64,000 nucleotides of DNA from Candidatus Omnitrophota bacterium. Its GTDB lineage: Bacteria; Omnitrophota; Omnitrophia; Omnitrophales; Aquincolibacteriaceae. Below, one piece after another: positions 25,724-43,956 of this stretch. Made by a program: the position numbers and the translations under genes. The notes below the pieces were generated by a model, which did not search any database, had not been told where the DNA came from, and saw only the letters and a list, made by a program, of their open reading frames with translations. Within the stretch, counting starts at the first letter, position 1, and each line of letters begins with the position of its first letter. The stretch spans positions 3,251-67,250 of the forward strand of contig JAYTHE010000029.1 in assembly GCA_043732705.1 (NCBI GenBank), given 5' to 3'.

Positions 25724-25920
25724 TTTTATTCTCCTTAAGTTACGCTCCTGACCTGCGGCAGGCAGGTGCCCGCACGTGGTTAGAAGCCCGCTCCCCATCG
25801 ATTCGCAGTCATTTTTTTCTCTGCACCAAAAGGTACAACTGCATGGATCTACTCAGAGCGAAAATGAGCCGGAATGATAGCGAATCTCTTTGTCGCCGTC
25901 TACTAGATTTATGCCCGCCA

Positions 25921-25962: not shown

Positions 25963-28900
25963 TTAAGCTGAAATATCGATCAATTCGCCTGCTTTGAGCA
26001 AGGCTTGCACGACAACCATCACCGACCAACCACCGTTCGGACGGCGCTGAAGGCCTTGAATACGCTGGTTGAGATAATTTTGTGCGGCAACAATATCGCC
26101 TAGTGCGGCGGCTTGGCGCAAATCACGTATCATCGCCACCAAAACTTCATAGTCTTCTGCTGAAACCGCATTTAAAAGTTCCAAAACAATTTTGCCGCGA
26201 ATATTTTTTAAGATTGAATTCGAAGTTAAGAGCACAGCTACACCAGGTTTTGCAGCCCATGTCGCAACCTCGGTTTGATTCCCAACAATCACAAGCGCAC
26301 TCATCCAATTCTTCGCTTTGTTCTTCTGTTCAACGGATAACCCTGATTTCAAATTGGTCAATTTATTCCGAATGCGATCGCGCAAGCCGCCCTTCATGTC
26401 TAATAAAATCAAAAGCCCCGCTGTATCTTTCAAAACGGCATAGAGACCCTTGGCATCATTTGCTTCGAGCAATAAATCCACATACGCGGAATCCAGAATA
26501 AGCTGCGTATTATTTTGGACAAATTTTGATTGAGGCGCCGCCAATGTTTTGCTTGGTGCTTGCTGCGCAAGCACTCCAACTATCGGCTGAGGAATTTCAT
26601 CGGCAAAAGCTTTCGCACCTGTCCATGTCATAATCAAAGCAATTGCATCGCTTGTAGCAAGCTCCATCAAAAACTGCCGCGGCACAATACCGCGCATAAT
26701 CCAAACCAATGTTGGTAAAATCGCCACACGCGTCTGCAGAGGCTGTCTTGTAATTTGAGCTTCACCAAAAACCGGCCTTTGCTCTGACCGCCGAATAACC
26801 CGCGGCGCATAAATCAAACGCGCCTGATTCCCCAGTGATGGGCTCGGTGTCAGGTCTTTTGGAAGACTTCGCACTTCGGAGCGAGCTAAATAATAGTAAG
26901 CCACGGTTTCTAACCCTTTATTGCCAATTTGTTTTGCGAAAATTTTCCCTGAACGGCTCAACTCAGCAAAAAGAACTCTTGCTTCCGCAACTTTGCTATC
27001 GTTTTCAATGCCATATCTCCCCCCATCGATAGCTTTGGAAAGCAGCTGCACAGCCTGCTTCGCTTTAACAATGTTGGCGGGAGTTTGGTCTTTTAAGAAA
27101 ATGAGCGTCACAGCTGCTATAAAAACCAACACGCTTCCAAGCAACCCGGTAAGCGAGCTTGCTGAAGCCGAAATATTTGTCATGGCCGTCGCGAGGCTTA
27201 TCAACCATGCCCCCAAAGTCATGGTCACGCCCGCCGCCAAAACCGTAACAATCCATAATTTCAATGATTTTTGTTTTACCGCATCAGATTGCTGCCACGC
27301 CACAGCCTTACCTCCTAGCTGTCTTGAAAGATTGACAAACTGCTGCCAATTATTATCAACCCGCGCTTCGGAGCGAGCCAATCTCATCCAAATATAAGCT
27401 CCAGTCATTATTTCCGGTAAAGAGGCATCCGTAAACTCGTTTTGAAATTTTTGTTTGAGCAATTCCAAAAGTTTTCGTGTGTTTTCTAAATTAGCCTCAG
27501 TTTCGCCGTCATGATAATAAATTTTAAGTTCGATATTTTTTTCTTCTCCTGCCATTTCAACTTCAAGTTTTTTGAAATTTGGATTTCCACGAAAATAATT
27601 CTCAGCCGCTTGCCTTATAGCCTCTCGAAAAAGAAGGTCTTCCACACCACTATAAATGGCGGTATCGCTGTCAGGATTTGAGGCGGTTGACTCAGCGTCA
27701 TTTTTTCCAATTACAAACCACGCTTTTGCTTTGGACTCCACGGTGGACGATGAGCTTGAACCTTCAGGAAAAAATAGTTCCTGAAGCTCCGGAGAAGGCG
27801 CCTTGGGATCTAACAAAATTGTGGGTACCGCAATTTGTCCGAAAGCATGCGCCCCTTGGAGTGACTTTCGGAAATCTGCTAGCGAACCAGGAACTGTTTC
27901 ATCGGCATCGACATCGACCACTTTTTTACGGGCGAGAAGAACCGCTTTCCAATAGTCCGCGCTTTCTGAAAACTCCTCCGGCTGATAAAAAAGAACCCCC
28001 ACAATCTCGACTGCATCCGGAAAAACTGCGCCATCCACATTGGCAAGTATCTGTCTAATCGCCGCAGTTTTTTTCCTTTCAAACGGATTAGTAACAGGCG
28101 CATATCGAGTCAGTTGATTTTTGCCAACATTACCATTGCCCGGCTGGCGACCGGTAGACGACCCACGCACAGTTTGATTCTCGCCTCGCACAAGCCAAGC
28201 AGACGGAATCAGCCGAACAATCAACGTGGCTGCCAAAACACTGAGCAATAAATATAAAAATGGATTTGCATGTATCAAATTCCATAAGACTCCAAAATGA
28301 ATGCAAAAAAATGCGACAGGAATAATGGCTGCCGTGATCAATCCCCTTTTATAAATGACTCGGATTGCGTGGTTCTGCTGCGAAGGAGAAGCTAATTTAA
28401 ATAAATCCGGAAAAATAATTATCAGAAAGTCCCTCAGAAGAAAATAGAATGCCGCGGCAGTCCCAAATGCTATGCCCATATTAGAAAAGTATGAGTGCTG
28501 CGAGCCAACCATGCCGTTTCTTGATAAAATCGCACCCACAGCACTGCTCAAATCCATTGCCAGAATTAAAGTCACCACCCTCATGGTCCATGGCGCATGA
28601 CCTTGTCTGTGTTCGGAACGCTTAGGCGGAATGACGTGTCCGGACGAAGGCTGACCGTTACCAAAATGGGTTGGGAGAGGAGCGTTTTTTACCTGCGGAA
28701 TTGAAAACGGACTACGCATTTTGTTGCCATATCCATATGTCGTAAAAGTCATCGGCCTAGGTCCTGCGTGCTCCATACTACGACGCACCGCTTCTGTGAA
28801 TTGCGCGCAACTACCCAAGATTCCAGCGATTGAAACTGACAGCAACATCCTCACGAGTGAAGAAATTCCCAGCCGTTTATTGAACCGCATTTCGGAGCGC

Positions 28901-31900
28901 AATAGCTTTGGAACGAGCTCGCGCAACACAAACAATCGAAAAAGTGCCGGAGAGTTTTTACCTTCCCCGCGCATCACTTCTAAATCTGCGCTCGCATCAT
29001 CCGGCACAGAATAGCGCTGAACAAATTTTTTGAAAGCCGCACGGTCTTCATCTGAAATCTCGTGAGGGATAATTTTGCGGCCGTCTTTCTTTGATGGATC
29101 TGGTGCATTGACCAAAATAAATTCCAGAATTTTATCTTTTTCTTGAAAGGCGCGTATCCAAAGAACCCGGGGATCAAAAAACGACTTGATCATCTCAGCC
29201 TCAACGCGCGATGCATTTTGCAAACGCGCAACCGCTTGAGAAAAAATCGGGGCATGCGCGCCAAGATTGATAATATTCCACTCACTCCAAAAATGCGCGC
29301 GATACCTGTAAAACAGTTGACCACCCTCAACCACAATAATTTGATGATTTACTCCTGCTTCTACAGTCTGTTTTCCGCGCGATTCAGAGCGGGCCTTCGC
29401 TTCATACAAAGAAAAATAAACTCTGCCGCTATCGCCCGGCTCGGTTTTTTGATCCCAGCTGATTGTGACCTGGGATGCTGCCCGGGTACGCGCGACACGC
29501 AGATTTTGCAAACTAAAATTCACGCTTCTTGCGCCGGATTCGATTTTGACCAGCTCCATAACGTCGGGATTTCCGCGAGCGGGACGAAAATCCAAAAACA
29601 TATCGGTGCCCGATAAAATATTTTCAACCGCTGCGGTGGCCTTTGCACGGGCCGTGGAAGAAGGCAGACTTCTGATTTGGCCTATAAGATGCGCCTTTAA
29701 GTTTGTTCTTACGTCGAGATGAGTAACCAGGTTCAACTTCCATTTTTTCTGCAATTTCTCTCTGGAAACTAAAAGCATCGTTGCGCCGTAACCTCTTACT
29801 TCAGAGCGAACGGGAATCGAGAATTTGATTTTACTGCCCGAAACTTCAACTTTAACAGGCTTGGTTTGGCGTTGAGCAATGCGGTCGGTTGGGCGCTGTC
29901 TTGGCGAGCCTTCCGGTGAAAGAACGTAGACCTCTTCATTCCGCAATTGTTCGTTCACGACCACACCCCAATTACCGGTGGGGGCATAGGTCTGCGTAAG
30001 AGCTTCGCGAAAAGCGCTTAATTCCCCGGTTTGATTTACGATAAAGATCAAGCGGCGGGTTTTCAAAAGGCCCTTCATCAAATTACGAACATACCCCAAA
30101 TCGTCAGGCAAAATTATCCAGGCCTGTAAAGCTTGAATCAACTCAGCCTGTTTCTTCAAAAGCGCAGGGTCGGCCTCATTGACATTTCGCGCACCACCAG
30201 CTAAAAGATCGATAAGGAAAATGCGCTCACCGCGATGTTTATAAGTACCTTGCCCAGCAGCCTCAACATGCTGAAAAAATTCGTCGGTCACTTCACTTAC
30301 GAGCTTATCGTCTAAATTGAATTCTATTTCGCGTGTTTCGGAGCGGGCTTTGATTTTTGAAGTTGCGGCTTCAAGCAAGCGTGCTTTACGCTGAGCAAGG
30401 TCTGCATCCGAAATCCGGGCTGTAGCTCCCCCATTCGCGCCCCACTGCGATTCATAATTCAAATCAATATTCCGGTGTGCGTTTAAAAAGCCGCCGCTGG
30501 GGCCAAAATATTTAACCCCCCTGAATTCAACGGGGCCTCCTTTTCCGGAAAAAACTTCTAATTGAATCAAGCTCTCATCTCCATTTGCGCCACCGTAAAA
30601 TTTCCATAGCTTGTATTTTGTGCCAGGCACATTTTCGACTTTGAATCTCGTTGCATTTTGAACGAGAGCCAGAACTTCTTCGTAGCTAATTGATTCTCGT
30701 GATTCAGAGCGACTTTTTGTCTTCTCGCCACGTTTTTTAAAAGTTGCCATGTTGTGATTACGGCGCGCTGCGTGAAGAAAGCGCCTATTTCTTTCATCCC
30801 GCCTTTCATCATGCGCCTCTTGCTGTTGAATCGCGTGACTCCTCGCCGCTGGATCCCAAGCTACGCGCATCGTAAGTGGATTCGGTTCGCCGTCCGCGCG
30901 CTGACGCGCCTCGGAACGGCGCGTAAACTCAATGGTCCATATAAATCTTCCATTATTTAAACGAGAGCCTTCACTCTTCAATTGATAATCATATTGAGGA
31001 TATTTCCATGTTAAAAGGCGTCCAAAATTTTCCGCTAAATCCTTTCCAAAATTTCCTTCCGGAACAGAAACCGTCATCTTAAAAGAAACAGGGTTAGCAC
31101 CTGAAAAAGAAATTACCGGGTTGTTGTCATGCATCGCCAGCCCGCGTTCTAAATAAATAAACTCTTTGGGTGCACTACCTTGTGTCCACAGAGGTGTGCC
31201 CTGCATTTGCCCAAGCCCTTTTGAAGTGAGCGGCTCACTTTGAATTGCGCTTAAATGTTCCTGAACGGCATTCATCGCTCGCACACCCAAGGTTTGCAGT
31301 TGAGCATCCGTGGCGCCGCTTGTTTCTTCAGCCTTAAAATCCAAACCAAAAGATGTCTTGGCCGTAATCAAAGCTTTGCTGCGGTTTTTTGCAACACTGA
31401 TTTCAAAAACCAGGCCAGGCAAGACTTTGACAACCAAAGTGGGTAGAGAATTTTTTATTTCTTTTGAACTCCATATAATGCGCCCATGGTTCGGAAGAAT
31501 TTTATCCATTTGTGTCAAAAGGCTTCGAAATGCCGGTCTAAAATTTTCTGCAACGTCCGCGACGGCTCCGCTGATCGCGCCATCTGAAAGGCGATGTTCG
31601 GAGCGGGCATCCGGAACTTCAATAATAATTTCAACGTGGTCTCCGGTTAAAGATTCAACACGAGCCGAAAATCCCGGCACAGTAAGCGGCGTCAGGTCGA
31701 GAGATGCACCATATACGGCCGATTGAATATCACTATTTTCACCGTTCAAACCATAGCTTACGGCTAAATGCTTTGTCGGTCCGTCATGATCATGCCCGTC
31801 AACATTATCAAAAATAACCACGCGGCCATTCAAAATTCCCAAACGGAATTCATGGTCAGAGAGAATCGTTGCCATGGGCGATGCTTCATCGCTTAACTGA

Positions 31901-34900
31901 TCCAGGTCGGCAAGCAACCCCGGCTCATTTCTCGTGCCGCGGACTGCATCAAAATTGTCATCGTTTGCATCAACTAAAAACATTTCAATGGGCGCGCCCT
32001 TTTTTAAAGCAATCGGTTTTGTCCGTTTTGCCGTTAATACTATTTCACGAACTTCAGAGCGAACAGCACGCGCGCTTTCGAAAGCAGCCTGAATTGCTTC
32101 TTGTGATTTCACACCGCGAATGGCCTCGCCGCTTAGAAGTAGTTGTATTTTTTGCTCAAGCGTTGCCCAATTAAAAATTTGGAGAAGCTTTAAAGTGTTC
32201 TTAATCCGGCCGACAAGGTTCGCTTTATTTCCTGATTCAATGTGTGCAATAAAAGCCGCCCATTGTGGGCTTATTTTTAGAAGCCCACGCTTTTCTAAAA
32301 TTTCCCGCATCAGCGCAATGCTTTTTTCTCCAACTCGATCGGTTGTCAAATCACCAGCTTTTAATTTTGTCAGCAGTTGCCCCATATCCGTGATTGGCGA
32401 TGCGCCATCCGACAATTGATTCTTAGCGAACCCGGCAAGCCTGCGGTCTATTCGAGCCATTTCAAAAAATAAATCATTCAGCTCATAGGCCAATCCCTCT
32501 TTGCGTCTTTTTTGAAAAACAAAAAATGCTTTAGCCCAATTCAACCCTGTTTTTCGAATGTGCTGTATGGTTTGACTGGAATTCTTCCCTAGCTTTCCGC
32601 GCAATTGACTCACGCTAAGGAATTCTTCACCGCTCAAAGGAAACTGTCCTTTTAATACCGCGATTTCATCTTTTGTCAGCGGTGATTCTGTTGAATTAAA
32701 AAGCTGTTCGCGGAATTCCTGGTTACTAAGAAATGCCGGTCTTCGCGGCGTTTGCCGGAATTCCGAGCGGACGGTACCCGCAACAGAAGGGGCCGATTCG
32801 GTGCGTAAAATAAGGTGCCCAGCTTTGAGGTCAATTAAACCTTGATAAGCGTTGCTGAGAAACAAGTCCTGCCTTGTGCCGTCGCTTCGAATCATCCAGG
32901 GTACTCCGCCATGGATTTCATCATAATTCAAAGGGCGAAGCGGGTTTAATCCACCATCGATCAGTTGAGCTCCGATAACTTGGCGATCTTTAACCCAAAA
33001 CACAATGTCTTGTCTATTCTGGCCGCGAAACGCAGCAAGATTCAGCCCTTCAAACATTGTTCCAAACTTAAAATTACTAACAGTAACAATTTGAATAACT
33101 TTTCCGTCTAAATGACTCGCACGCGTTTGATCCATGATAACTTTTTCTATCTTCGGATCCCAATACCACGAGCGAAATGCAGGCAACCAAATAGGCGAAA
33201 ACATTAACAGAGCAAATATGCTAGCAATGCTTGCGGGAATAAGAACAGCAATAACCCGTATGATTAAACTAAAAGATGTTCGACCCAAAAATCTCAACCT
33301 TTTCGAAAAATAAGAATAGTTAGCATCATTCTTTAATAGGGTCACAATATGGATTACGCTTTCCAAACTCTTTAAGGCTTCCGGCTGATCCTGCGCATCT
33401 GTCTTAAGAAAAAATTTAATCTGCCATTTGAGCACTGTTCCGCCAAGAGTCCACTCATCTACCAATTCATCAAATTTCGCCGGCATCGTACTTAAAAAAT
33501 TTCGCACATCCGCAAGCATTTCCGGTTGTTTCGAAGCATCAAAACCTTTGTTTTTCAGAAGGGACTGAAACCCAATTGCTTCGTTCTCAATACCATCAAG
33601 CACATTTAAAAATTTGGAAGTTCTCTTGCCCATTTGAAGAAAACGTGATTCTGAACGCGCTAAATTGCCAAACCAATTTTTTTCCTCGATTGCGGCGTCT
33701 TTCGCATCGGCGCTGCCATGAAAACCATTCGGGCCATAACCCACCTTACCGGAATAAGGAATGCCCTCTTTTTGTCCAAGCATACCGCGCAGTGTATCTT
33801 TGCCGGCTTTGGCGGGATTCGTATCGCCCAAGCGAATTCTAAAATCAGCGATGGCTTTTTGTTTTGTCCCGGCGGGAGCTAAAAGCGGCGCGATTTCTAA
33901 AACAATAATCGTTTTTTGTTCAGCCCAGGTTTGACGCATTTGGGGATAATGGCCGTTGATAACAACAACATCTTCTTCGCCGCCACCGCGTTTTTTAAGA
34001 TGCATTTTAGCGACATAAGCGCCTTCTCCGATTTTGTTGCGGCGATCAACAGTCCAAACCGGCTGGCCAGCATCGTCTTTTTTAGGAGGCGCAAGACTAT
34101 CCCATGCGCCCGCGAGTTCATCCGCCGTAACATTGTATTTTTCTAAAACTACGTCAGCGGGAAGGATAATAGCCGCGGCACCATAAATATGTTCACTCGT
34201 AGCTTTCAAGTTGGCATCTTGTGAACTAAAGCCTTTTGAAGCATATCCCGCCATTAAACCATAGTGCTGATCCACTTTTTTAGAACGCGCGGCAAATTCA
34301 CCCGACATCGCGACACCGCGCACAATATAAAAACCATCATCGTTTAAAATTTTCAGAGACTTTTCAAAAAATTCCGGGCTTTGCGGGCCGCCAAATTGTT
34401 TGAAAATGAAAACTGCTGCTTCATCCAATTTTAACCGGCTTCGCGGCACAGTCTCCCTGTCCACATAAATCGGAACTGGCCCTCCCTTCACGTCTAGAGC
34501 TGAAAGTTTTGCTAACTCTTCAGCGAGTTTCCGCAATTCGGAACGCACCGGCTTAAACACAAATTGCCAGCCTAGCGGAGCTTGTCCCGGGTGCCTGGAA
34601 TGAGCTGTCTCAACTTCGGTCCCTAAAAATTCCCGGACCAAGGCTTCTTGTTCATCCGAAAAAGTGATTCTTATTTTTGCTAAGTCCGGGTTATAAGAAA
34701 AAGCAACGAGCGGGTTTTGATCTGCGCGTTCATATCCGGGAATATTTCTGCTTCTCAAATGAAAAGCAAACGGCATGCTGGCATTCTCACGATTCCAGGA
34801 CATCCAAACCATTTCACCCTTGGCGTCTTTCATTTCAAGCGCCCAGCCATTGCCATCCGGATAAACGGAAAGCATCGCGTAAGTTTGTCCGAGCGAAAGT

Positions 34901-37900
34901 GTTCTCTGGGCGGATACTGCTCCTGATGTGTATTTCCAAGAATCTAAATTCCCGCGCTGCCCCTGAATCAATTTATATAAATCATCCATGGTCATGCGCA
35001 TTTCGGAGCGAGCGGAATAAAGCAATTTTGGATAATGGTCTTCGATTGTCTGCTTTAACTTTTCCTGAAAGATCTTGTCAGCGGGTTGCGATTCCAAAAT
35101 CAGCCAGCGCTCCTCGGTCTTCGAGTCAGCCGGACTTTCAATCACCACTGTTAAGCCGGCCCGGTAAGCGATAACTGAAAGAATATCAAAAATTTCCTTT
35201 GATCTCCCTGTTAACTCCACGTTGCGGGCCGCATCAATCGAGACTTCCGAAACATTCAAAGGAATTCGAATTTCATTGCCTTTAAAATCAATGACCAGCT
35301 GATTCATTCGCAATGTGGTAATAAAATTTTGAACGCTTGAATCCTGCTGATTAGAAGCGTTATTCCAAGGCCACCCTTGGCCATAGCCGAATCGCATTTC
35401 AGAGCGGGCGGCTGAGTCAAGCAAAACAGCAGGCTGGGGCGCTGGTTGCGTGTTATTTTTATTTTGGGACTGCTCCTCGCTCATCTGCCGCCTGAATTCC
35501 GCTTCCTCTTCTTTAGTAAGCCGCCTTACAGCTCCACTTGTATCCGGCATATTATCCGCCGCGGGGTTTGGATTTCTGAGTGGTTCCAAAAGTAAATATC
35601 CGGCATAAAGGACACCCACCGCCGCAAGACTAATCAACGCGGCCGGCACCTTGCGTATTTCAGACCGGGCAGTCGGTTCAAGAAATAAAAGCTGGGCATG
35701 CAGGCCCAAGTGATGCATATTCGCATCGTGAGCAAAGTGATCCGTAACTGGAATGCCCGCGCGAAAATCGTACACCAAGTCTTGCGCACTAGGAGCTTTG
35801 TCGTAAAAGTGAACTTTTTCTTCGCCCGGAATGGAATAGTCCCCCACCGAATAAAACACATCATCGCGTGCGGCCAATAACGAACTCATATTTTGAACAT
35901 TACGCGCCCACACTTTATTAGCCTGTTGATCCCAAGGTTCGATTCCCAAATAAAAGAAAGGTGTTAGAATGCGGCCGGTTTTAGGATGGCTGCGGGAAAA
36001 CATAACCGTGTCATAATGATCTGTGCGATGCAAACGCAACATTGAACCTTCTCCGAAAAGAAGTTGATTCACAGGATCTTTTAAATAATTTTCAAGCATT
36101 GAAAATTGCGGAAGATTCCAGCTTCTGAATGCTTCCAACGTTTCTGGCGCCAGAAAAACAGCTAAACCCGCCAAGCCAAAAACTTTTTCTTCGCCGTATT
36201 TTTTCGCGGCTTCTTCGCGCGACAATTGACTGATTTCAGCCACCCATGTCGCAAGTTTTTGCGGCAAAGGTTCCCCCTGCTGAATGGGCTTGCGAATTTC
36301 CTTCACCATTCCGACCAAGGGCTCGAGATTGTTCTGTCGATTGAGAATCGCGTTAAACTCGCGCATATATTGCGCGCCCGGATTAAGCGCATTCACAACA
36401 CGGCTTAATTTAACGGCGACTTCCAAATAGGAGCCAAAGTGTGCCGGTTTTTCATGAAATGCGTTGACCTGGTTCAGAAGAACTTCCAGATAAGAACCGG
36501 GCTTATCGTCTTTGGGAATTAAAATGTTACCGGAGCCCGCGACTTTCGGATTAAGAACAATTCCGATTTTCTGAATATTGCCTTCCGTCCAAGCAGGCCC
36601 CATGATGAGCGCGCCATTCACCGCGCCGTTCATTTCAGTAATTTCCGAAGCGCCGGTTTTATAATTAGAATCCGCCACAATAATATGTGAAATGCCTAAA
36701 CCGTCGACTTGTTCTTCCAGGCCGAATCCGGTCCGAACAACTACGCGTCCAAATTTTCTTCCTTGCTCTCTTTCTTCTTTTTCAGCGAGCGTATTGATTT
36801 CAGCCGCCGCTTTCTGCAATTCTTCAAAAACTTTATTCGGTATGGTTTGAACGTTGCCTTCATAAAGTACATTCGCGCCGCTTAAAATCAGTTGGCGAAT
36901 GTTATAAATCGTCCAGGCGCGCTCACGGCCCGATTTCTCATGCACAAACCGTCCTAGGTAAGAAATTACCGGTAAATCAGGATTGAGCTCAGCGTTCCAT
37001 ATCCCTTTATATTTAATATTTAATTCCCGGATACCTTCTTTTTTTGCCGCAATAATCTGCTCACCGGTGGGACGCCAGACATCCACTTCCCCCGGATGAG
37101 GATAAAGCTTCAAAAGCATTTTTCTAAAAAAAGCCGCCGATCGATCCAAGTCATCCCCGTTAGGAACGGAGACCATTCGCGCTTGCGGATCCCTGCGCGA
37201 AACTTCATGCACGTGCGGCGCGGCCACGCCATTTCTTCCGTGAGAAGCGCGCACGCCCTGCGAAGTAGGGTCCATTGAGCCATTGCTGTCGACCGATTCC
37301 ACCGGGCCCCGATTTAAAAAAGTATGCGTGGTAAACCAGACAATTGCTTTTCTTAAAATGTCGGTGGCTTTATCCATTTTTCTTTTTTCGGGAGGCAAAT
37401 AACCGGTCTGTCCGTCATTGCCCCAAATCACCGGCGACTTATAATCGTTTGCGTTTTCACCTTGTTTGGTTTTTTCTAAAATCCGGATCAATTCCAACGA
37501 CGCTTTGGAGAAAAATTCACTAAATTCTTTCCAGGTTGGCAAAGGAAAAGGCGGGTCTTGAATGTCAGGCGAATATTTGTAAAGTGCTGCGGTGTACTTA
37601 CCGCCGTCAAGCAGGTAAACGGGAATGCCGTCTTCGGTTCTCCCTTCTCTGACAATGACTTTCACTTTTGTTCCAAGCACAACCACTTCGAATTCATACA
37701 CCGCTTTTAAATTTTTAATCGGCGTTTCAAGTTTTTCATAATCGATGGGGGTCGTGGATTTGTCCGCGTGAATCTTATGATGATAAAAGCCTTCGATTGT
37801 TACGATTTTTCCACGTTTTGCCAAAAGCTTGTGAATAGCGCGTGTGTGGTATTGCCCGACACGGCCTAAGCCGCCCGCCAGCAGCCATGTCTCGGGCGAA

Positions 37901-40900
37901 ACATAATAAATGCGGCGTCCAATAAGATTCGGCGTGTGGAACTGCATCCATTGATCAATGTAGGCTTCCCATTCCTCCGGAGCTAATAATTCTTCGCCCA
38001 GCATTAAGAAAATTGCGTCCGTCACGCGTAAAGATCCAAATTTTTCAGGGGCAGAGATTAATTGCCGGAGCAATTTCTTCTGATCGTCTTTTTTCATCAT
38101 CGCGACCGCGCGCATGACCGGCCAACGAGATTCAAGCGGATATTTCGGCCAATCATCAGCCGCTTTGTCATAAGCCGCTAAAATTGCAGGCAGGTTCTCT
38201 TTGTTGTTTAAGGCTTCGAGCAATTGTGCTTGAATATAAAATGCCGCGTCCGAACTAAGCGCGGCGGCATCCATATTTTCAAGCAAACCCGTTCGCTGAA
38301 TTTCCGCCCACAAGGCAGTTAATTGATCATTGCTCGCGCCAAGGTTCATATCAATCAAACGCGCGGACATGCGGGGTTTAAGATCAGCTTCCGCGATGGA
38401 GTCACCGTCTTTCTTGGCATCCAGATAAACCCAGACCATGGTATTCATTCTTTGCCAATCCGCCGTGGGAGCATCAAGTCCCATCCAAAGCGATTTGTTC
38501 ATATCCCGTAATTCGGAGCGTTGCGCGGACTCGTTTTGCTTCTCTGCAAGCACGCTTTGAATAAACATCGCCATACCAATCGGGCCAATATTCTTTTGGC
38601 TTAATTTTTGATGCTCTCCTGGCCCCCAGCTCTTTTTCGCAAGATCCTTCTCCGTTAAAATCGTGATTTTTATTTTATCTTGCAGATCGTATTTTCTGAG
38701 CGCATCGAAAATTACTTGTTTAAATACTTCCTTGCGATCTTCACGGACAATTCCACCGCCAAGCACAATCTCATCGGGACTACCTTCGCCCGTCCCTTGC
38801 GTCATAAAATAATGGATAGCCAAATTGCTGGCGTATTTATCAGCAAAGTTACGCAAAACTCTGTTGGCAATTTGGCTTTTTCTGTTTCTAAGCAAAGCGG
38901 ACAGATTATCCGCCAGCGGTTGAACTGGCAGTGCTTCTGCCAAGGGTCTAAATTCGCCTTCCCTCAAATCATTCCAGTGATTCCTGTTATTAGTGGCCTG
39001 AGTAATCGCGGAATGGAGCATTCCAGGAATGCCGGTGAAAGCTTCTGAGTCATAAATCGCGTCGCCCGGTCGGCCAAAATTGAAAATACAATGTCCCACC
39101 TCCGTTGGCGCATTCATCGGAATACCGTTAACTAACTCTGCGTTACCAAAACCCGTACCAAGCCAATCCACGCGAACGTGGCCCTTTAATAATTCAGGTT
39201 TAATTGCAGCAAGGGCCCAAGCCACCCCCGAACCAACACCGTCCATGTCATTGCGAATCAATACTTCTCCGTGATTTAACCCTAGTTTTTCCTTTACCCG
39301 CACTGGTAAAATTAGTCCAAAATGCTGAACTTGCCTCATGCTCCATCGTTTTTCAGTAGGAATCTGCCCTAAAGTTTCCATTTGATTTTCGGTTAAGTTC
39401 TTGGCGCCGGGGGTGTCAAGACCAACGCCGTCAAAATTAATCCCTGCCCCCAATACTGCTTTTCTAATTTCGTCTATGTGGTCTGCGATACGCATAGCAA
39501 ACTGTTCGGGCGATTCCGCTATAAATTCGCCTCCCACAGTTTTTAGAACAGTCGGAAGCGTTTGCAAGTCTTCTGGAATCTCTATCATTTTTCCGTTACT
39601 TATCACCGCAAACTTTGCCGAACCACCGCCTAAATCCATCCCGAGAAAATTTCCTTTTACATCCGCTTGTAAAGCAATGCCCAGATCCAACTTCTTTTTC
39701 TCTTTTTCTTGAGGCGTCAGGTCCGATATTTTTTTAAAAGATATTTTTTCACCACCGCCATTTGCGTAATTCTGAACTCCAAACGCCGTTACCGTGTCCT
39801 GCGATAATTCCGTGCTTTGATTCACTCTTGATAAATCGCCCTGAGTTAGCAAATCGGCGATTCTACTTTCTTTTACCAAATCAGGCTCACCTTCAACTCC
39901 GACCGCAATAAATGAAGTGCCATATCGAATCGAAAGGTTGTAGGCCCACGCGGCTATATAACGATAAGCTGATTCTTGAAACGCGGGATCTTGAAGCAAC
40001 GACCGCGACATCGGAATTTGAAGTTTGACACCGCGCGCGATTTGAATCGTCACATTCATTTTGTCAGCCGCCTCTGCAGGCCGATACTGATTAAGCAATC
40101 CAAACCAAGTTAATGCGTCCGTGCTAACTTTTAAAATCGGCTTGATTTCTTCTAACCGCATTTCGGAGCGCAGAGCTGAGCGGATATTCACCGTTACAGT
40201 ATTGGCGTTTGTTGAAAAATCCCAGGTAATCGCATTGCGTCCCTTTTGCCTTGCGCGGGAAAACTCCCACTTGACTGCTTTCGCAAGAGACCGTCTAGAC
40301 TCTGCCATCACTTTACCCTCTAGCAAAAACAGATTGATTTGAATTCCGATTTCACCATTTACGTAAAAAGCTATTGTTTTTATTTCTGAAGTAGCCGTGG
40401 ATTCAATTTTTCGCAGAATTTCACGCAATAGACGCTCTTCCTGCCGAAAAATCTCTTGCCTTGCAGACACCCTGCCTCTAACGTAGAAGAAAAGCGCCCC
40501 GAGCAATCCGGCGGCCATCCATTTCCAATCATGCCGCAGCCAGGCAAAAATTCCCGTCACAGCCAAAAGAGCCGGATAGAAAAACTTATTCGCTCTTATT
40601 TTTGCTACGGCAGCAGAAAATGTTTTCTTCCATTCCACGCGCATTTCGGAACGCTGAGAACGGCTTTTCGCTTTAACCGAGGACGAACTTCTTTGAACGA
40701 AGCGTCGCACCGGAGATGCTTCTTTACGCGATGAATTAAAAGCGCCGCTGCGCGCAGTAAGTACAAGAGTTTGCAATTCAAAACGATGCATCGCCTCGCC
40801 TCCAACGGGGTCGGCGCCATAAGGAGACTCAAGGTTTCGATTCAGAGTGTTAGGAATAGTATGCGCCATCGTTTGCGCGATACCCGGCATGCGGTACGCG

Positions 40901-42540
40901 GCACTTTCCTGCAGCATACTTTTCAAATAAGCCTGATAACCCTTTTCATCGGGACCGGAAATGGCGGGCGTCACAACAACGTAAGTATAACCTTCCTTTT
41001 CAAGCTGTTTGCGCATCGCGTCCGTATGAAATCCGCCGGTCACTACAACCGCGAACTTTGCGGGATTTTTTTTCAAATAATTCTCTGTATTTTGAATCAT
41101 GAGTGTATCGCGATTTTTCGCGCCTTGATAAAAAGCAACTGCTGTTTGAAAAACGCCATCGATCTCTCTCAGATGCACAAATTGAGATCTTTTCGCGGAA
41201 ACAGTTTTTATTTTTTGCAAACGCCTCGCGAGTGCGGACGGCTGGATTTCTGAAACCACAGGGGTCAGTCCCCGCTGCTTCGCATCAAGGACAGACCCCT
41301 CTGCATTATTTTTTCTGATTTTTAAAAAATCGCCGGGAGTGAGTTGTAACGCGAGAAGTTTTTTGAGCAGGCGATAATCTGAAAAAATGGCGAGCATTTC
41401 TTTTTCGCTTTCATTACGCGCCAATTTATCCATGACAAGTTTTTCAATTTGTTCGATTTCAGATGCAAATGCAGCGGGACGAACTTCGCTTTGCAGGATA
41501 AGCAGACCCATAAAACGCATGACATTAGGATAAGTTTTAAAATTAAAATCATGCGGAAAATAACGCAGCATCTCAGCAAATGTATTTTCTGTTTCAGGTT
41601 CGGGTAGTTGAATACTCTCCCCCGCGCTATTCAAAAGTTTTTCAACTTTCTCATAGAGGCCGGAGACCGGAGACCGGAGACCCGGTAAATACCTTTCGGC
41701 TTGCTTTAAAAAAGCCTTTTTCTCCACTTCATATTTTGAAGCATTCCATTCTTTGGAAATTTTTTGAATTTTAAAAAACCGTACTAACATCGGCCAGGGT
41801 AGCTGCCAAGCTGCGTCCGTTAAATCAACTTCCAGGTATTTTTGCGCGTTTTTCTTTAACTCTTCAGTCCAGGCCTCGTAAGAAACCATTCCCAGCTCAT
41901 GCTGTTCAGCTCTTGTAAGAAAACTGCGTAGCGCGGGATCAAAAATAGCCGCGGCCTTTTCCATTTCCCGGTCAAACGAATCTAAAAATTCCTGCGAACC
42001 TTCACGCGCGCGCAGAACGGCTGCAAACTGACGTTGATTGACCCAATACGCAAATTCGTTTTCAATCCCCTGCGCTAAAGCGGCAGGATGGTCTAATAAA
42101 TACAGTTCGGGGCCCTTAATCAAAGCTTGCATGGCAAGCAAATGCGCGGCCTTTTGTGTACGTTCAGGATTACCAGGGAAAAAATTAATGCGCTGCGGAT
42201 CCAGCTTTCCCGCGGCACCTTCCAGCAATACGGGATACGAACCATATTGCGCGGCAAACCGGTCAAGAATTTTTTGAATTTTGACCTGCGCCTCATAATG
42301 TCCATGCGCGGTTTGAAGATGAACAATGATTCCTTTATAACCCGGATGGAGACTATCAATGTGGCCTAATTTAGTGGGCAATGTAAGCGCAAGGCCTTGG
42401 CTGAATTGGGAGAAAGCTGGAATAGAAATTTCAGCCTGCGGTGCAATCACCCCGGCATAAGAGAAATTAGTGGGAATATAAGCGATCAGCGTCACGATCG
42501 CCGTGACACGCCAAAATTTTCCGAGAGACTTTTGAAGCAT
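25963..42540 (-). CDS. Giant 5,525-aa multi-domain, multi-TM protein of unknown function with about 21 recurrent [AVL]-R-S-E-x-R motifs
   Basis: One uninterrupted 16,578-nt ORF with no stop on the minus strand, which is not achievable by chance at this GC. It has an N-terminal hydrophobic signal anchor and at least five clusters of TM helices. Three domains are recognisable: TraB/GumN/Tiki-like at about 40950..42400, ASKHA ATPase (GMDLGGGSAKF ... IVLGGGI) at about 38740..39690, and a divergent alpha-glucan-phosphorylase-like (GT35-like) domain (IYYVSPETWLLAGGLG ... IPVYLLDGG ... TGASEITEMNGAVNGALIMGPAW) at about 36450..37910. A sigma-70-like promoter candidate lies upstream. Confidence 0.8.
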   Translation of the reverse strand: MLQKSLGKFWRVTAIVTLIAYIPTNFSYAGVIAPQAEISIPAFSQFSQGLALTLPTKLGHIDSLHPGYKGIIVHLQTAHGHYEAQVKIQKILDRFAAQYGSYPVLLEGAAGKLDPQRINFFPGNPERTQKAAHLLAMQALIKGPELYLLDHPAALAQGIENEFAYWVNQRQFAAVLRAREGSQEFLDSFDREMEKAAAIFDPALRSFLTRAEQHELGMVSYEAWTEELKKNAQKYLEVDLTDAAWQLPWPMLVRFFKIQKISKEWNASKYEVEKKAFLKQAERYLPGLRSPVSGLYEKVEKLLNSAGESIQLPEPETENTFAEMLRYFPHDFNFKTYPNVMRFMGLLILQSEVRPAAFASEIEQIEKLVMDKLARNESEKEMLAIFSDYRLLKKLLALQLTPGDFLKIRKNNAEGSVLDAKQRGLTPVVSEIQPSALARRLQKIKTVSAKRSQFVHLREIDGVFQTAVAFYQGAKNRDTLMIQNTENYLKKNPAKFAVVVTGGFHTDAMRKQLEKEGYTYVVVTPAISGPDEKGYQAYLKSMLQESAAYRMPGIAQTMAHTIPNTLNRNLESPYGADPVGGEAMHRFELQTLVLTARSGAFNSSRKEASPVRRFVQRSSSSVKAKSRSQRSEMRVEWKKTFSAAVAKIRANKFFYPALLAVTGIFAWLRHDWKWMAAGLLGALFFYVRGRVSARQEIFRQEERLLREILRKIESTATSEIKTIAFYVNGEIGIQINLFLLEGKVMAESRRSLAKAVKWEFSRARQKGRNAITWDFSTNANTVTVNIRSALRSEMRLEEIKPILKVSTDALTWFGLLNQYRPAEAADKMNVTIQIARGVKLQIPMSRSLLQDPAFQESAYRYIAAWAYNLSIRYGTSFIAVGVEGEPDLVKESRIADLLTQGDLSRVNQSTELSQDTVTAFGVQNYANGGGEKISFKKISDLTPQEKEKKKLDLGIALQADVKGNFLGMDLGGGSAKFAVISNGKMIEIPEDLQTLPTVLKTVGGEFIAESPEQFAMRIADHIDEIRKAVLGAGINFDGVGLDTPGAKNLTENQMETLGQIPTEKRWSMRQVQHFGLILPVRVKEKLGLNHGEVLIRNDMDGVGSGVAWALAAIKPELLKGHVRVDWLGTGFGNAELVNGIPMNAPTEVGHCIFNFGRPGDAIYDSEAFTGIPGMLHSAITQATNNRNHWNDLREGEFRPLAEALPVQPLADNLSALLRNRKSQIANRVLRNFADKYASNLAIHYFMTQGTGEGSPDEIVLGGGIVREDRKEVFKQVIFDALRKYDLQDKIKITILTEKDLAKKSWGPGEHQKLSQKNIGPIGMAMFIQSVLAEKQNESAQRSELRDMNKSLWMGLDAPTADWQRMNTMVWVYLDAKKDGDSIAEADLKPRMSARLIDMNLGASNDQLTALWAEIQRTGLLENMDAAALSSDAAFYIQAQLLEALNNKENLPAILAAYDKAADDWPKYPLESRWPVMRAVAMMKKDDQKKLLRQLISAPEKFGSLRVTDAIFLMLGEELLAPEEWEAYIDQWMQFHTPNLIGRRIYYVSPETWLLAGGLGRVGQYHTRAIHKLLAKRGKIVTIEGFYHHKIHADKSTTPIDYEKLETPIKNLKAVYEFEVVVLGTKVKVIVREGRTEDGIPVYLLDGGKYTAALYKYSPDIQDPPFPLPTWKEFSEFFSKASLELIRILEKTKQGENANDYKSPVIWGNDGQTGYLPPEKRKMDKATDILRKAIVWFTTHTFLNRGPVESVDSNGSMDPTSQGVRASHGRNGVAAPHVHEVSRRDPQARMVSVPNGDDLDRSAAFFRKMLLKLYPHPGEVDVWRPTGEQIIAAKKEGIRELNIKYKGIWNAELNPDLPVISYLGRFVHEKSGRERAWTIYNIRQLILSGANVLYEGNVQTIPNKVFEELQKAAAEINTLAEKEEREQGRKFGRVVVRTGFGLEEQVDGLGISHIIVADSNYKTGASEITEMNGAVNGALIMGPAWTEGNIQKIGIVLNPKVAGSGNILIPKDDKPGSYLEVLLNQVNAFHEKPAHFGSYLEVAVKLSRVVNALNPGAQYMREFNAILNRQNNLEPLVGMVKEIRKPIQQGEPLPQKLATWVAEISQLSREEAAKKYGEEKVFGLAGLAVFLAPETLEAFRSWNLPQFSMLENYLKDPVNQLLFGEGSMLRLHRTDHYDTVMFSRSHPKTGRILTPFFYLGIEPWDQQANKVWARNVQNMSSLLAARDDVFYSVGDYSIPGEEKVHFYDKAPSAQDLVYDFRAGIPVTDHFAHDANMHHLGLHAQLLFLEPTARSEIRKVPAALISLAAVGVLYAGYLLLEPLRNPNPAADNMPDTSGAVRRLTKEEEAEFRRQMSEEQSQNKNNTQPAPQPAVLLDSAARSEMRFGYGQGWPWNNASNQQDSSVQNFITTLRMNQLVIDFKGNEIRIPLNVSEVSIDAARNVELTGRSKEIFDILSVIAYRAGLTVVIESPADSKTEERWLILESQPADKIFQEKLKQTIEDHYPKLLYSARSEMRMTMDDLYKLIQGQRGNLDSWKYTSGAVSAQRTLSLGQTYAMLSVYPDGNGWALEMKDAKGEMVWMSWNRENASMPFAFHLRSRNIPGYERADQNPLVAFSYNPDLAKIRITFSDEQEALVREFLGTEVETAHSRHPGQAPLGWQFVFKPVRSELRKLAEELAKLSALDVKGGPVPIYVDRETVPRSRLKLDEAAVFIFKQFGGPQSPEFFEKSLKILNDDGFYIVRGVAMSGEFAARSKKVDQHYGLMAGYASKGFSSQDANLKATSEHIYGAAAIILPADVVLEKYNVTADELAGAWDSLAPPKKDDAGQPVWTVDRRNKIGEGAYVAKMHLKKRGGGEEDVVVINGHYPQMRQTWAEQKTIIVLEIAPLLAPAGTKQKAIADFRIRLGDTNPAKAGKDTLRGMLGQKEGIPYSGKVGYGPNGFHGSADAKDAAIEEKNWFGNLARSESRFLQMGKRTSKFLNVLDGIENEAIGFQSLLKNKGFDASKQPEMLADVRNFLSTMPAKFDELVDEWTLGGTVLKWQIKFFLKTDAQDQPEALKSLESVIHIVTLLKNDANYSYFSKRLRFLGRTSFSLIIRVIAVLIPASIASIFALLMFSPIWLPAFRSWYWDPKIEKVIMDQTRASHLDGKVIQIVTVSNFKFGTMFEGLNLAAFRGQNRQDIVFWVKDRQVIGAQLIDGGLNPLRPLNYDEIHGGVPWMIRSDGTRQDLFLSNAYQGLIDLKAGHLILRTESAPSVAGTVRSEFRQTPRRPAFLSNQEFREQLFNSTESPLTKDEIAVLKGQFPLSGEEFLSVSQLRGKLGKNSSQTIQHIRKTGLNWAKAFFVFQKRRKEGLAYELNDLFFEMARIDRRLAGFAKNQLSDGASPITDMGQLLTKLKAGDLTTDRVGEKSIALMREILEKRGLLKISPQWAAFIAHIESGNKANLVGRIKNTLKLLQIFNWATLEQKIQLLLSGEAIRGVKSQEAIQAAFESARAVRSEVREIVLTAKRTKPIALKKGAPIEMFLVDANDDNFDAVRGTRNEPGLLADLDQLSDEASPMATILSDHEFRLGILNGRVVIFDNVDGHDHDGPTKHLAVSYGLNGENSDIQSAVYGASLDLTPLTVPGFSARVESLTGDHVEIIIEVPDARSEHRLSDGAISGAVADVAENFRPAFRSLLTQMDKILPNHGRIIWSSKEIKNSLPTLVVKVLPGLVFEISVAKNRSKALITAKTSFGLDFKAEETSGATDAQLQTLGVRAMNAVQEHLSAIQSEPLTSKGLGQMQGTPLWTQGSAPKEFIYLERGLAMHDNNPVISFSGANPVSFKMTVSVPEGNFGKDLAENFGRLLTWKYPQYDYQLKSEGSRLNNGRFIWTIEFTRRSEARQRADGEPNPLTMRVAWDPAARSHAIQQQEAHDERRDERNRRFLHAARRNHNMATFKKRGEKTKSRSESRESISYEEVLALVQNATRFKVENVPGTKYKLWKFYGGANGDESLIQLEVFSGKGGPVEFRGVKYFGPSGGFLNAHRNIDLNYESQWGANGGATARISDADLAQRKARLLEAATSKIKARSETREIEFNLDDKLVSEVTDEFFQHVEAAGQGTYKHRGERIFLIDLLAGGARNVNEADPALLKKQAELIQALQAWIILPDDLGYVRNLMKGLLKTRRLIFIVNQTGELSAFREALTQTYAPTGNWGVVVNEQLRNEEVYVLSPEGSPRQRPTDRIAQRQTKPVKVEVSGSKIKFSIPVRSEVRGYGATMLLVSREKLQKKWKLNLVTHLDVRTNLKAHLIGQIRSLPSSTARAKATAAVENILSGTDMFLDFRPARGNPDVMELVKIESGARSVNFSLQNLRVARTRAASQVTISWDQKTEPGDSGRVYFSLYEAKARSESRGKQTVEAGVNHQIIVVEGGQLFYRYRAHFWSEWNIINLGAHAPIFSQAVARLQNASRVEAEMIKSFFDPRVLWIRAFQEKDKILEFILVNAPDPSKKDGRKIIPHEISDEDRAAFKKFVQRYSVPDDASADLEVMRGEGKNSPALFRLFVLRELVPKLLRSEMRFNKRLGISSLVRMLLSVSIAGILGSCAQFTEAVRRSMEHAGPRPMTFTTYGYGNKMRSPFSIPQVKNAPLPTHFGNGQPSSGHVIPPKRSEHRQGHAPWTMRVVTLILAMDLSSAVGAILSRNGMVGSQHSYFSNMGIAFGTAAAFYFLLRDFLIIIFPDLFKLASPSQQNHAIRVIYKRGLITAAIIPVAFFCIHFGVLWNLIHANPFLYLLLSVLAATLIVRLIPSAWLVRGENQTVRGSSTGRQPGNGNVGKNQLTRYAPVTNPFERKKTAAIRQILANVDGAVFPDAVEIVGVLFYQPEEFSESADYWKAVLLARKKVVDVDADETVPGSLADFRKSLQGAHAFGQIAVPTILLDPKAPSPELQELFFPEGSSSSSTVESKAKAWFVIGKNDAESTASNPDSDTAIYSGVEDLLFREAIRQAAENYFRGNPNFKKLEVEMAGEEKNIELKIYYHDGETEANLENTRKLLELLKQKFQNEFTDASLPEIMTGAYIWMRLARSEARVDNNWQQFVNLSRQLGGKAVAWQQSDAVKQKSLKLWIVTVLAAGVTMTLGAWLISLATAMTNISASASSLTGLLGSVLVFIAAVTLIFLKDQTPANIVKAKQAVQLLSKAIDGGRYGIENDSKVAEARVLFAELSRSGKIFAKQIGNKGLETVAYYYLARSEVRSLPKDLTPSPSLGNQARLIYAPRVIRRSEQRPVFGEAQITRQPLQTRVAILPTLVWIMRGIVPRQFLMELATSDAIALIMTWTGAKAFADEIPQPIVGVLAQQAPSKTLAAPQSKFVQNNTQLILDSAYVDLLLEANDAKGLYAVLKDTAGLLILLDMKGGLRDRIRNKLTNLKSGLSVEQKNKAKNWMSALVIVGNQTEVATWAAKPGVAVLLTSNSILKNIRGKIVLELLNAVSAEDYEVLVAMIRDLRQAAALGDIVAAQNYLNQRIQGLQRRPNGGWSVMVVVQALLKAGELIDISA

Positions 42541-43878: not shown

Positions 43879-43902
43879 AAATAAATTCCTTTTTGAGTCA
43901 TC

Positions 43903-43950
43903 GGGGACAGACCCCGCTCTCAAACACGAACAATCATAGGGGTCTGTCCC
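43903..43950. repeat. Hairpin GGGGACAGACCCC-n23-GGGGTCTGTCCCC between the glmU stop and the prs start
   Basis: 13-bp perfect inverted arms read directly. A near-identical arm pair occurs inside the giant gene at 41261..41300. Confidence 0.6.
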
Positions 43951-43956
43951 CCTAAA

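Follow-up and report, generated by a model that had tools for sequence, protein, structure and literature searches.

The closest described systems are the giant proteins of Omnitrophota, in which GT5 is the second commonest domain, alongside glycolytic and phosphoglucomutase (PGM) domains ("Archaeovorins", West-Roberts et al. 2023, bioRxiv 10.1101/2023.11.21.568195; the "multi-enzyme metabolic cluster" class, bioRxiv 10.64898/2026.06.07.730766). The published work also describes a Pfam co-occurrence "sugar-metabolism module" made up of PF08323, PF00534, PGM and ROK, and adhesion or coat roles have been proposed for these giants. Neither paper reports an inter-module motif, and one calls the cleavage points unknown.

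The window analysed here, a 64,000-nt stretch of DNA from a Candidatus Omnitrophota bacterium, encodes a giant protein (Table 1) that resembles these systems in phylum, in its very long ORF and transmembrane segments, in its tiled GT5 (PF08323), sugar-kinase and sugar-metabolic domains, and in its sparse domain annotation and low sequence conservation. It differs from the published giants in length (5.5 kaa, versus thresholds of 10–30 kaa in those studies), in a kinase module whose divergence keeps it under the Pfam ROK cut-off, in that a domain search of the ORF detected no HEAT, dockerin, C39 or SecA domains, and in modules delimited by the motif R-S-E-x-R. The initial annotation had considered a sugar kinase and a glucan-active enzyme in one polypeptide unusual; a mix of GT5 and ROK domains is, however, already known for Omnitrophota multi-enzyme giants, which also carry phosphoglucomutase. 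We consider it probable that this ORF encodes another such giant, in which module 3 is a ROK-type kinase, module 4 is a GT-B transferase closest to GT5, and the modules are shuffled cassettes delimited by RSExR. The protein would comprise a signal-peptide-like N-terminus, a conserved head, about 20 autonomously folding cargo modules and a tail.

Table 1. Features of the giant ORF. Nucleotide coordinates are window positions; all features lie on the minus strand.
Feature	Position (nt)	Residues (aa)	Remarks
Giant ORF	25963..42540	5,525 aa	ATG start; stop counted in
Signal-peptide-like segment, MLQKSLGKFWRVTAIVTLIAYIPTNFSYA/G	42451..42540	1-30	Basic n-region, hydrophobic core, A-x-A-like site; read from sequence
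Conserved head domain of giant-protein family	40861..42450	31-560	Alignment A4
Junction RSEMR	40639..40653	630-634	
Junction RSEMR	40156..40170	791-795	Directly precedes kinase module
Kinase module, N-terminal alpha/beta extension	39661..40155	796-960	Kept in 15/15 strong (E<=5e-24) homologues
ROK-type ASKHA sugar-kinase domain	38521..39660	961-1340	Structure, profile and residue evidence
Junction RSELR	38506..38520	1341-1345	Separates kinase and GT modules
GT module, first ~100 aa	38194..38505	1346-1449	Partial conservation with P0001-P0003
Family-specific helical extension ahead of GT-B fold	37921..38193	1450-1540	YPxExRWPxxxAVAxM motif
GT-B glycosyltransferase domain, GT5-like	36325..37920	1541-2072	Pfam, Foldseek, alignment
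GT module, C-terminal ~220 aa	35668..36324	2073-2291	Absent from stand-alone homologue P0002
Junction RSEIR	35653..35667	2292-2296	Follows GT module
Transmembrane-like segment	35587..35643	2300-2318	Begins 4 aa past end of preceding junction
R-S-E-x-R junction	35392..35406	2379	
R-S-E-x-R junction	34996..35010	2511	
R-S-E-x-R junction	34531..34545	2666	
Nucleoside-diphosphate-kinase-like stretch, module 8	33667..33957	2862-2958	PF00334 31.5 bits (cut-off 27); NCBIfam match too
R-S-E-x-R junction	33643..33657	2962	
R-S-E-x-R junction	32755..32769	3258	
R-S-E-x-R junction	32047..32061	3494	
R-S-E-x-R junction	31591..31605	3646	
R-S-E-x-R junction	30904..30918	3875	
R-S-E-x-R junction	30697..30711	3944	
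R-S-E-x-R junction	30331..30345	4066	
R-S-E-x-R junction	29794..29808	4245	
R-S-E-x-R junction	29377..29391	4384	
Junction RSEMR	28885..28899	4548	Lipoprotein-signal-like module start next
Lipoprotein-signal-like module start, FNKRLGISSLVRMLLSVSIAGILGS/C	28807..28884	4553-4578	C4578 is one of the 3 Cys
R-S-E-x-R junction	28606..28620	4641	Transmembrane-like segment next
R-S-E-x-R junction	27361..27375	5056	
R-S-E-x-R junction	26869..26883	5220	
R-S-E-x-R junction	26776..26790	5251	
C-terminal tail module	25966..26775	5256-5525	Ends in -SA, same as other family members

A search with the head domain returned 43 loci, about half of them labelled only "uncultured bacterium" without a phylum; the phylum-named records were all Omnitrophota except one Planctomycetales. 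Residues H79, E107 and GGFH505 are invariant in the head alignment, and the GGFH region of one homologue matched PF04187 below threshold; the head possibly adopts a TIKI/ChaN-like hydrolase fold. Mis-assembly, or separate genes joined through sequencing or frame errors, RSExR then being chance or low-complexity repeats, would account for the unusual ORF length, the one feature in its favour. This explanation is scarcely credible given that the frame is open through 16.6 kb, that homologous ORFs with head, cargo and tail (1.2 to >3.9 kaa) occur on about 30 independent MAG contigs, that the upstream flank is syntenic with two related loci (L002 and L003), and that RSExR is written in differing synonymous codons.

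Turning to module 3, residues 961–1340 are a divergent ROK-type sugar kinase of the ASKHA fold. The AlphaFold model of the module (pLDDT 89.7, pTM 0.91) retrieved almost exclusively ROK kinases or repressors among its best 50 Foldseek matches (best E 1.5e-12, TM 0.72), and a profile built from eight kinase modules matched the ROK glucokinase 2qm1 (E 5.5e-6) over residues 5–291 of 326. That alignment paired the DxGG, PG..D, ND, GTGxG, ExGH and GGG motifs. The module shares DxGG(T/S), PG..D, the N-D catalytic pair, GTGxG, ExGH and GGG with ROK sugar kinases (E. faecalis glucokinase 2qm1, T. thermophilus hexokinase 3vov) and polyphosphate glucokinases; all signature residues for nucleotide and sugar binding are kept (D969/G971, N1097-D1098, G1128/G1130/G1132, E1147/H1150, E1166 and G1262-G1263). 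Unlike ROK kinases, it sits inside a giant protein, has longer inserts and an added N-terminal stretch of ~165 aa, lacks the CxCGxxGCxE zinc motif (no CxCGxxGC within residues 961–1340), and scores below the Pfam ROK gathering cut-off, with sub-threshold matches in four of eight members (best E 0.007). NCBIfam gave a weak match to polyphosphate-glucose phosphotransferase. The proposed domain order is an alpha/beta extension followed by a ROK-type kinase with phosphate-1, phosphate-2 and adenosine motifs, N-D, ExGH and a downstream Glu, the zinc-cysteine motif having been lost. Such a module would probably act as an active hexose or N-acetylhexosamine kinase. The initial annotation's ASKHA sugar-kinase-type domain is therefore upheld, as ROK-like, one of the families it had proposed for testing. 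The peptides it quoted are real and fall within or beside the ranges it gave: in the kinase, LGMDLGGGSAKFAVI (aa 966–980, 39601–39645) and DEIVLGGGI (aa 1256–1264, 38749–38775); in module 4, IYYVSPETWLLAGGLGRVGQ (aa 1544–1563, 37852–37911), REGRTEDGIPVYLLDGG (aa 1631–1647, 37600–37650) and GRVVV...AWTEGN (aa 1931–1988, 36577–36750). It had given no strand for these; the strand is minus.

Module 4, proposed to consist of a helical extension, a GT-B transferase and a C-terminal region, had been described as glucan-phosphorylase-like (GT35). Its likeness to GT-B alpha-glucan enzymes stands; the GT35 label does not. PF08323 (GT5) matched the giant ORF above its curated cut-off (30–31 bits versus 22.7) and all nine family members, whereas PF00343 matched none of the nine. 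The PF08323 match, like the kinase module's likeness to ROK proteins, goes beyond chance. Foldseek placed GT5 enzymes first (E 3e-17); against this, query-normalised TM-scores slightly favour GT35 (up to 0.60, versus 0.56 for GT5). HMM alignment to GBSS paired D, H and R..K with GT5 residues; the key residues are E1550, G1556-G1559-R1560, D1709, H1739, R1864, K1869 and T1962-G-A-S-E1966. We read the domain as a retaining glycosyltransferase closest to the GT5 glycogen/starch synthases.

A GT35 homologue that lost its PLP lysine, became non-catalytic or repurposed, and was fused to the kinase as a dedicated envelope-glycan bifunctional unit seems quite unlikely. Its local motifs do recall phosphorylases (GGLGR; NDGQ versus NDTH; TTHT versus TNHT; TGASEITEM versus TEASGTGNMK), and the family profile matched residues 581–669 of liver glycogen phosphorylase at E about 0.35, so the C-terminal resemblance that had been reported is real yet weak. 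The PLP lysine is indeed replaced, by N1971 in the window and by D or N across the family; as 9/9 members lack Lys there, this state goes back to the family's ancestor and is not a recent inactivation. Other differences from GT35 are the missing PF00343 match and a GT-B domain of ~530 aa versus 750–850 aa, and the kinase–GT adjacency is missing in the nearest relative.

The assignment to GT5 likewise comes with departures from characterised synthases (E. coli GlgA 2qzs, Arabidopsis SS4 6gne, GBSS 3vue/6gnf). The KTGGL Lys is gone (LAGGLGR), the C-terminal half has no PF00534 match, the active-site loop is GT35-like in length and sequence, and a helical N-extension and C-terminal region are added. 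In the window clade, Gly replaces the Glu aligned with E. coli GS E377 and phosphorylase E672, and a Glu stands three residues later (TGASEITE versus TEAAGYTE). This displaced Glu leaves in doubt which donor is used, and even whether the domain is catalytically competent. Module 4 nonetheless retains the Asp, His, Arg and Lys aligned with GT5 and GT35 catalytic and phosphate-binding residues, and we infer that its reaction would be glucosyl transfer from a sugar nucleotide rather than that of a PLP phosphorylase.

These losses, together with that of the ROK zinc site, could instead indicate pseudoenzymes, enzyme-derived folds that no longer catalyse but scaffold a surface coat or adhesin, either structurally or by binding sugars, in line with the literature's proposals for Omnitrophota giants. 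Strong Cys depletion (3 Cys in 5,525 aa) and the signal peptide further suggest export to an ATP-free compartment; should the signal peptide be genuine and the modules be exported, a kinase that needs ATP and a transferase that needs a nucleotide sugar would end up in an odd compartment, which counts against our preferred reading. We regard such scaffolds as unlikely, because the nucleotide-binding glycines, catalytic N-D, E..H and downstream E are invariant in eight kinase modules at 28–45% identity, and the GT D, H, R and K, aligned with GT5 catalytic residues, are invariant at 28–43% identity, so a non-catalytic GT segment, as previously suggested, is not indicated. Polyphosphate glucokinases, to which the matches here are weak, are moreover ROK members without the zinc motif.

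Comparison with relatives bears on the shuffled-cassette part of the multi-enzyme reading. The closest relative, whose flanking genes are mostly 86–97% identical, has the ROK module in a different module order and lacks the GT module, so the kinase–GT adjacency is not conserved even there. Elsewhere the kinase is accompanied by NagB and PIG-L or by PGM and UDPGP modules, and stand-alone single-module homologues exist for both the kinase (P0015) and the GT (P0002, P0006). We propose that the two are neighbouring cassettes of a shuffled sugar-metabolism repertoire rather than a fixed bifunctional unit. A part in envelope glycan handling, suggested by the initial annotation, is possible for them. 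The strict pentapeptide R-S-E-x-R occurs 21 times in the ORF versus 0.09 expected, giving 22 modules, and the 33 long ORFs of related giants carry 1.97 copies per 1,000 aa, versus 0.107 in other ORFs. In other giants it lies <=8 aa from the projected ROK-module boundary at four starts and seven ends. As an inter-module separator the motif appears to be undescribed.

An analogy, of logic only, is offered by MARTX (multifunctional autoprocessing RTX) toxins, very large proteins secreted by bacteria. Their ends are conserved, their effector modules form a shuffled, variable set, and cutting of the linkers between modules frees these effectors, of which RRSP belongs to the TIKI family of endopeptidases. 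MARTX proteins differ in using a cysteine protease domain that cleaves after Leu, cleavage here being putative, and in carrying toxins, whereas the cargo here is metabolic enzymes. R-S-E-x-R may mark cleavage sites, at which modules would possibly be released. Judged from sequence features, the RSExR junctions, the possibly TIKI-like head, the near-absence of Cys and the signal-peptide-like starts after some motifs together suggest a processed polyprotein, each module of which would work as an autonomous enzyme.

The giant protein (5,525 aa) is encoded by one 16.6-kb ORF of the window, and all peptides quoted in the initial annotation were found in its translation at the places assigned to them, which confirms the underlying observation. 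The part of this protein that deserves follow-up is the pentapeptide R-S-E-x-R at the module junctions, which occurs 21 times against 0.09 copies expected. The 21 motifs divide the protein into 22 segments of 26–946 aa, with the kinase and glycosyltransferase (GT) domains each occupying one segment, and the AlphaFold model of the kinase module is folded from the first residue past one motif up to the last residue before the next. Related long ORFs carry 186 copies in 94.6 kaa (1.97 per kaa) versus 0.107 per kaa in the other ORFs of the same loci, an enrichment of about 20-fold in related Omnitrophota giants, with 3–12 copies per other giant. In those giants, a motif lies at most 8 aa from the projected boundary of the ROK-like kinase module at four starts and seven ends. 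The motif is sharply defined: 253 of 282 RS..R occurrences read RSE.R, with A, V, L, M or S at position x, and its flanks have no information content.

Features of the giant protein and its locus, in window and giant-protein coordinates
Feature	Window position	Strand	Giant protein (aa)	Remark
Giant ORF	25963–42540	-	5,525 in total	
Head domain	40861–42450	-	31–560	putative TIKI-type enzyme
Peptide LGMDLGGGSAKFAVI			966–980	in giant ORF translation
Peptide DEIVLGGGI			1256–1264	in giant ORF translation
Peptide IYYVSPETWLLAGGLGRVGQ			1544–1563	in giant ORF translation
Peptide REGRTEDGIPVYLLDGG			1631–1647	in giant ORF translation
Peptide GRVVV...AWTEGN			1931–1988	in giant ORF translation
Nucleoside-diphosphate-kinase-like stretch, module 8	33667–33957	-	2862–2958	PF00334, 31.5 bits versus cut-off 27
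RSEMR followed by FNKRLGISSLVRMLLSVSIAGILGS and C	28807–28899	-	4548–4578	lipoprotein-signal-like
Tail	25966–26775	-		-SA/-AA ending
rplY(ctc)–pth	24297–25798			flank of giant gene
glmU–prs	42898–45213			flank of giant gene
clpX	47320–48582			
Overlapping ORF, rplI–pth interval	22796–23500	+		more than 150 aa
Overlapping ORF, rplI–pth interval	23136–23651	-		more than 150 aa

Codons were counted at 193 motif sites, drawn from related loci L002–L044 and the window. Third positions vary and AGY/AGR codons are present, which argues that selection acts mainly on the peptide. A role of the motif at the level of DNA or RNA was considered, and these same features speak against it; yet the combination CGY-TCC is over-used. 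The first Arg is encoded by CGN at 98% of sites (background 79%) and by CGY at 83% (47%), and the Ser by TCN at 95% (69%) and by TCC at 52% (22%), with the last Arg at background. This bias may reflect selection for accuracy, shared descent or a nucleotide-level role. Searching the literature for the motif strings returned only the RSELR catalytic motif of PL7 alginate lyases, which is unrelated, and the accessible literature on these giants does not mention R-S-E-x-R; published work describes the cleavage points of Omnitrophota giant genes as unknown.

Turning to the segment between motifs that holds the kinase, its assignment to the ASKHA superfamily was right and can be narrowed to ROK-like. 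ASKHA proteins are marked by two RNase-H-like subdomains with phosphate-1 (DxGxx), phosphate-2 (GxGxG) and adenosine (GGG) motifs. The single segment had no meaningful match in Pfam or in a phmmer search of PDB sequences, and a word-indexed search of 5.8 billion proteins returned no relatives; an exhaustive search of representatives recovered 16, mostly within proteins of 1.3–6.5 kaa and at varying positions along them. An AlphaFold model built with these relatives as alignment (pLDDT 89.7, pTM 0.91) resembles ASKHA kinases, and its top 50 Foldseek matches in the PDB are almost exclusively ROK kinases and repressors, the best being 3vov (E 1.5e-12, target TM 0.72). Across the family, the phosphate-1 residues D969/G971, phosphate-2 residues G1128/G1130/G1132 and adenosine residues G1262-G1263 are invariant, as are N1097-D1098, E1147/H1150 and E1166. 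A profile of eight core sequences matched the ROK glucokinase 2qm1 (E 5.5e-6) over residues 5–291 of 326 with all signature motifs in register, including the ROK ExGH motif (E1147-V-G-H1150) and the catalytic N-D pair (N1097-D1098). Matches to the Pfam ROK family (PF00480) were sub-threshold only, with four of eight members matching (best E 0.007; window protein, E 0.09). The zinc motif CxCGxxGCxE that should follow ExGH is absent, the aligned HCIFNFGRPGDAIYDSE retaining only the final Glu. This absence makes ROK membership less likely, yet still possible, since polyphosphate glucokinases also lack the motif; the cysteine depletion of the giant protein may explain the loss.

The kinase module also has a conserved N-terminal extension of about 165 aa. 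In the related protein P0014 the ROK-like module sits beside NagB and PIG-L deacetylase modules, and in P0017 beside phosphoglucomutase (PGM) and UDP-sugar pyrophosphorylase modules, an arrangement that places steps of amino-sugar catabolism or sugar activation along one ORF. By eye, P0013 and P0018 have similar neighborhoods. A role as a hexose or amino-sugar kinase would be consistent with these neighbors.

The second domain had been described as GT35-like, i.e., resembling α-glucan phosphorylases, and this call should be replaced. Eight relatives of the module were found, mostly stand-alone proteins of 846–1,611 aa. All nine family members match PF08323, the GT5 starch-synthase catalytic domain (best E 3e-17; window protein, 30–31 bits versus a curated cut-off of 22.7), and none matches PF00343 or PF00534 in Pfam. 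Against PDB sequences, phmmer with the single segment found no match, and the nine-sequence profile gave marginal matches only, to GT5 as well as GT35 enzymes. The AlphaFold model of the module (pLDDT 84, pTM 0.87) retrieved exclusively GT5 and GT35 structures among its top 50 Foldseek matches, GT5 first, which places the family among the α-glucan-active GT-B enzymes, nearer to GT5. Membership of GT35 itself was rejected, as PF00343 is unmatched, the closest structural class is another, and the PLP lysine of EASGTxxMK is missing. The loss of this lysine, already remarked in the initial annotation, is borne out by profile alignment with liver phosphorylase: TGASEITEMN lies opposite TEASGTGNMK, with N1971 at the lysine position and D or N there in the family consensus. 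No family member has Lys at this site, so the module is not a PLP phosphorylase.

Profile alignment with granule-bound starch synthase (GBSS) pairs GGLG, D1709, H1739 and R1864..K1869 with GT5 residues, the latter four being invariant in the family. In the E. coli enzyme the GT5 active-site set is D137, H161, R300, K305 and E377. In the sequence alignment, members of the window clade have Gly where the active-site Glu is expected and carry a Glu at +3 instead (TGA[AS]E[IY]TE versus TEAAGYTE in the other clade); judged from this alignment, the three-residue displacement is a conserved pattern and not random decay. The lysine of the GT5 K-[TV]-GGL motif is missing, the window protein having L-A-G-G-L-G-R and the family consensus being xAGGLGRV.

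The presence of a sugar kinase and a glucan-type transferase in one polypeptide had been called unusual; it is in fact the typical cassette arrangement of Omnitrophota giant proteins and would not surprise a specialist. GT5 is the second most common domain of these giants, alongside glycolytic, PGM and PPDK domains (West-Roberts et al., 10.1101/2023.11.21.568195), and, according to a preprint from 2026, PF08323, PF00534, PGM and ROK form one Pfam co-occurrence module among proteins of at least 10 kaa, a class of such giants being named the "multi-enzyme metabolic cluster" (10.64898/2026.06.07.730766). The window protein shares the phylum, the very long ORF and the tiling of unrelated enzyme domains, sugar-metabolic ones included, but at 5.5 kaa is shorter than the thresholds of the published studies. 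It is a new, divergent example of a known Omnitrophota theme. The nucleoside-diphosphate-kinase-like stretch of module 8 (Table) matches only the C-terminal two thirds of its profile.

The giant gene lies among ordinary housekeeping genes, with glmU, prs, two ABC permeases and clpX upstream and rplY/ctc, pth, rplI, dnaB and bamA downstream. Two overlapping ORFs lie between rplI and pth (Table). A search with the N-terminal ~560 aa of the giant protein, using a three-sequence head alignment as query, identified 43 loci, of which about half belong to named Candidatus Omnitrophota MAGs, one to a Planctomycetales, and nearly all others to "uncultured bacterium"; several genomes contain two or three paralogues. 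At the best locus, L002, proteins of the upstream flank are mostly 86–97% identical to those of the window, whereas identity in the giant head reaches only about 63%, which marks the giant gene as a fast-evolving locus at a conserved chromosomal site. L003 was also among the loci compared for flanks. The giant encoded at L002, P0009, carries homologues of the window segments in the order 11-02-06-03(ROK)-14, versus 02-03-04(GT)-06-11-14 in the window, and lacks the GT module. The locus is therefore hypervariable at a fixed site, its head diverged and its cassettes reordered relative to L002, and the kinase and GT domains are shuffled cassettes and not a fixed bifunctional unit.

Several features of the protein outside the two enzyme modules bear on its possible export and processing. 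Enzymes of the TIKI/TraB/ChaN group have a TIKI fold with a conserved His-Glu pair and a second, GxxH motif. In the head domain H79 and E107, 28 residues apart, are invariant, as is GGFH505, and the His-Glu spacing equals that of the pairs in the TIKI-family enzymes Bcr135 and VvRRSP. One homologue matched PF04187 (ChaN/Tiki) in the GGFH region with 24.1 bits, under the cut-off of 27.7. A profile search of PDB sequences gave no real match, NCBIfam gave none, and a large protein database gave just two close fragments without Pfam annotation. The TIKI assignment is therefore tentative, with a TIKI-type hydrolase or protease as a candidate identity for the head.

Cysteine is strongly depleted, with three residues in 5,525 aa (0.05%) versus 0.87% in 28 neighboring proteins (family average 0.17%), a hint that the protein may be exported unfolded. 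One of the three lies in a lipobox-like context 25 aa past RSEMR4548. Segments resembling transmembrane (TM) helices begin 4–14 aa past the ends of the motifs at 2292, 4548 and 4641; the mild enrichment of hydrophobic segments after motifs (4 of 21 versus about 1.7 expected) was given little weight. At the other end, 12 family members picked for such endings terminate in -SA or -AA (the window protein, P0003, P0005, P0007, P0011–14, P0018 and P0021–23), among them stand-alone GT-module proteins without a head, and the tails align poorly beyond these terminal residues. Such an ending could act as a recognition signal at the C-terminus. The clpX gene is located five genes upstream of the giant gene, maybe by coincidence.

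Possibly, and with somewhat less than even confidence on our part, R-S-E-x-R is a proteolytic signal and the head-sharing Omnitrophota giants are exported polyproteins. In the mechanism that we propose, these giants, and perhaps also the larger "Archaeovorin"-type ones, would be bacterial polyproteins that are exported in Cys-free form and subsequently cleaved to yield about 20 autonomous proteins: soluble enzymes such as the ROK kinase and the GT5-like transferase, membrane-anchored proteins and lipoproteins. Cleavage might be carried out by the head domain, which is conserved and TIKI-like, or by an Arg-specific protease acting in trans, and R-S-E-x-R would also serve as a seam for the shuffling of cassettes between genomes. 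The specificity of the motif, its coincidence with boundaries and the signal-peptide-like starts would fit, as indirect support, a putative processed polyprotein; the low cysteine content, the lipobox- and TM-like starts, the head residues and the -SA/-AA ends likewise fit a putative polyprotein that is exported as well as processed, for which the MARTX toxins offer a loose analogy. Inspection by eye of residues ~80–160 of P0001 revealed a His/Cys pair resembling that of clan CD peptidases (..EYGHGG.. and ..KNACLQC..), upstream of a GT module delimited by RGETR and KSELR. This region could be a putative Arg-specific protease cassette present in some giants.

For the Omnitrophota giants as a family, unknown cleavage points hinder structure prediction, domain parsing and the question of whether such a protein is one coat protein or many enzymes. 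A motif that recurs family-wide at module boundaries provides a concrete, testable parsing rule and a handle for proteomics. As a delimiter, R-S-E-x-R is a candidate recognition site for a processing enzyme, and it raises the question of polyprotein logistics and cassette exchange.
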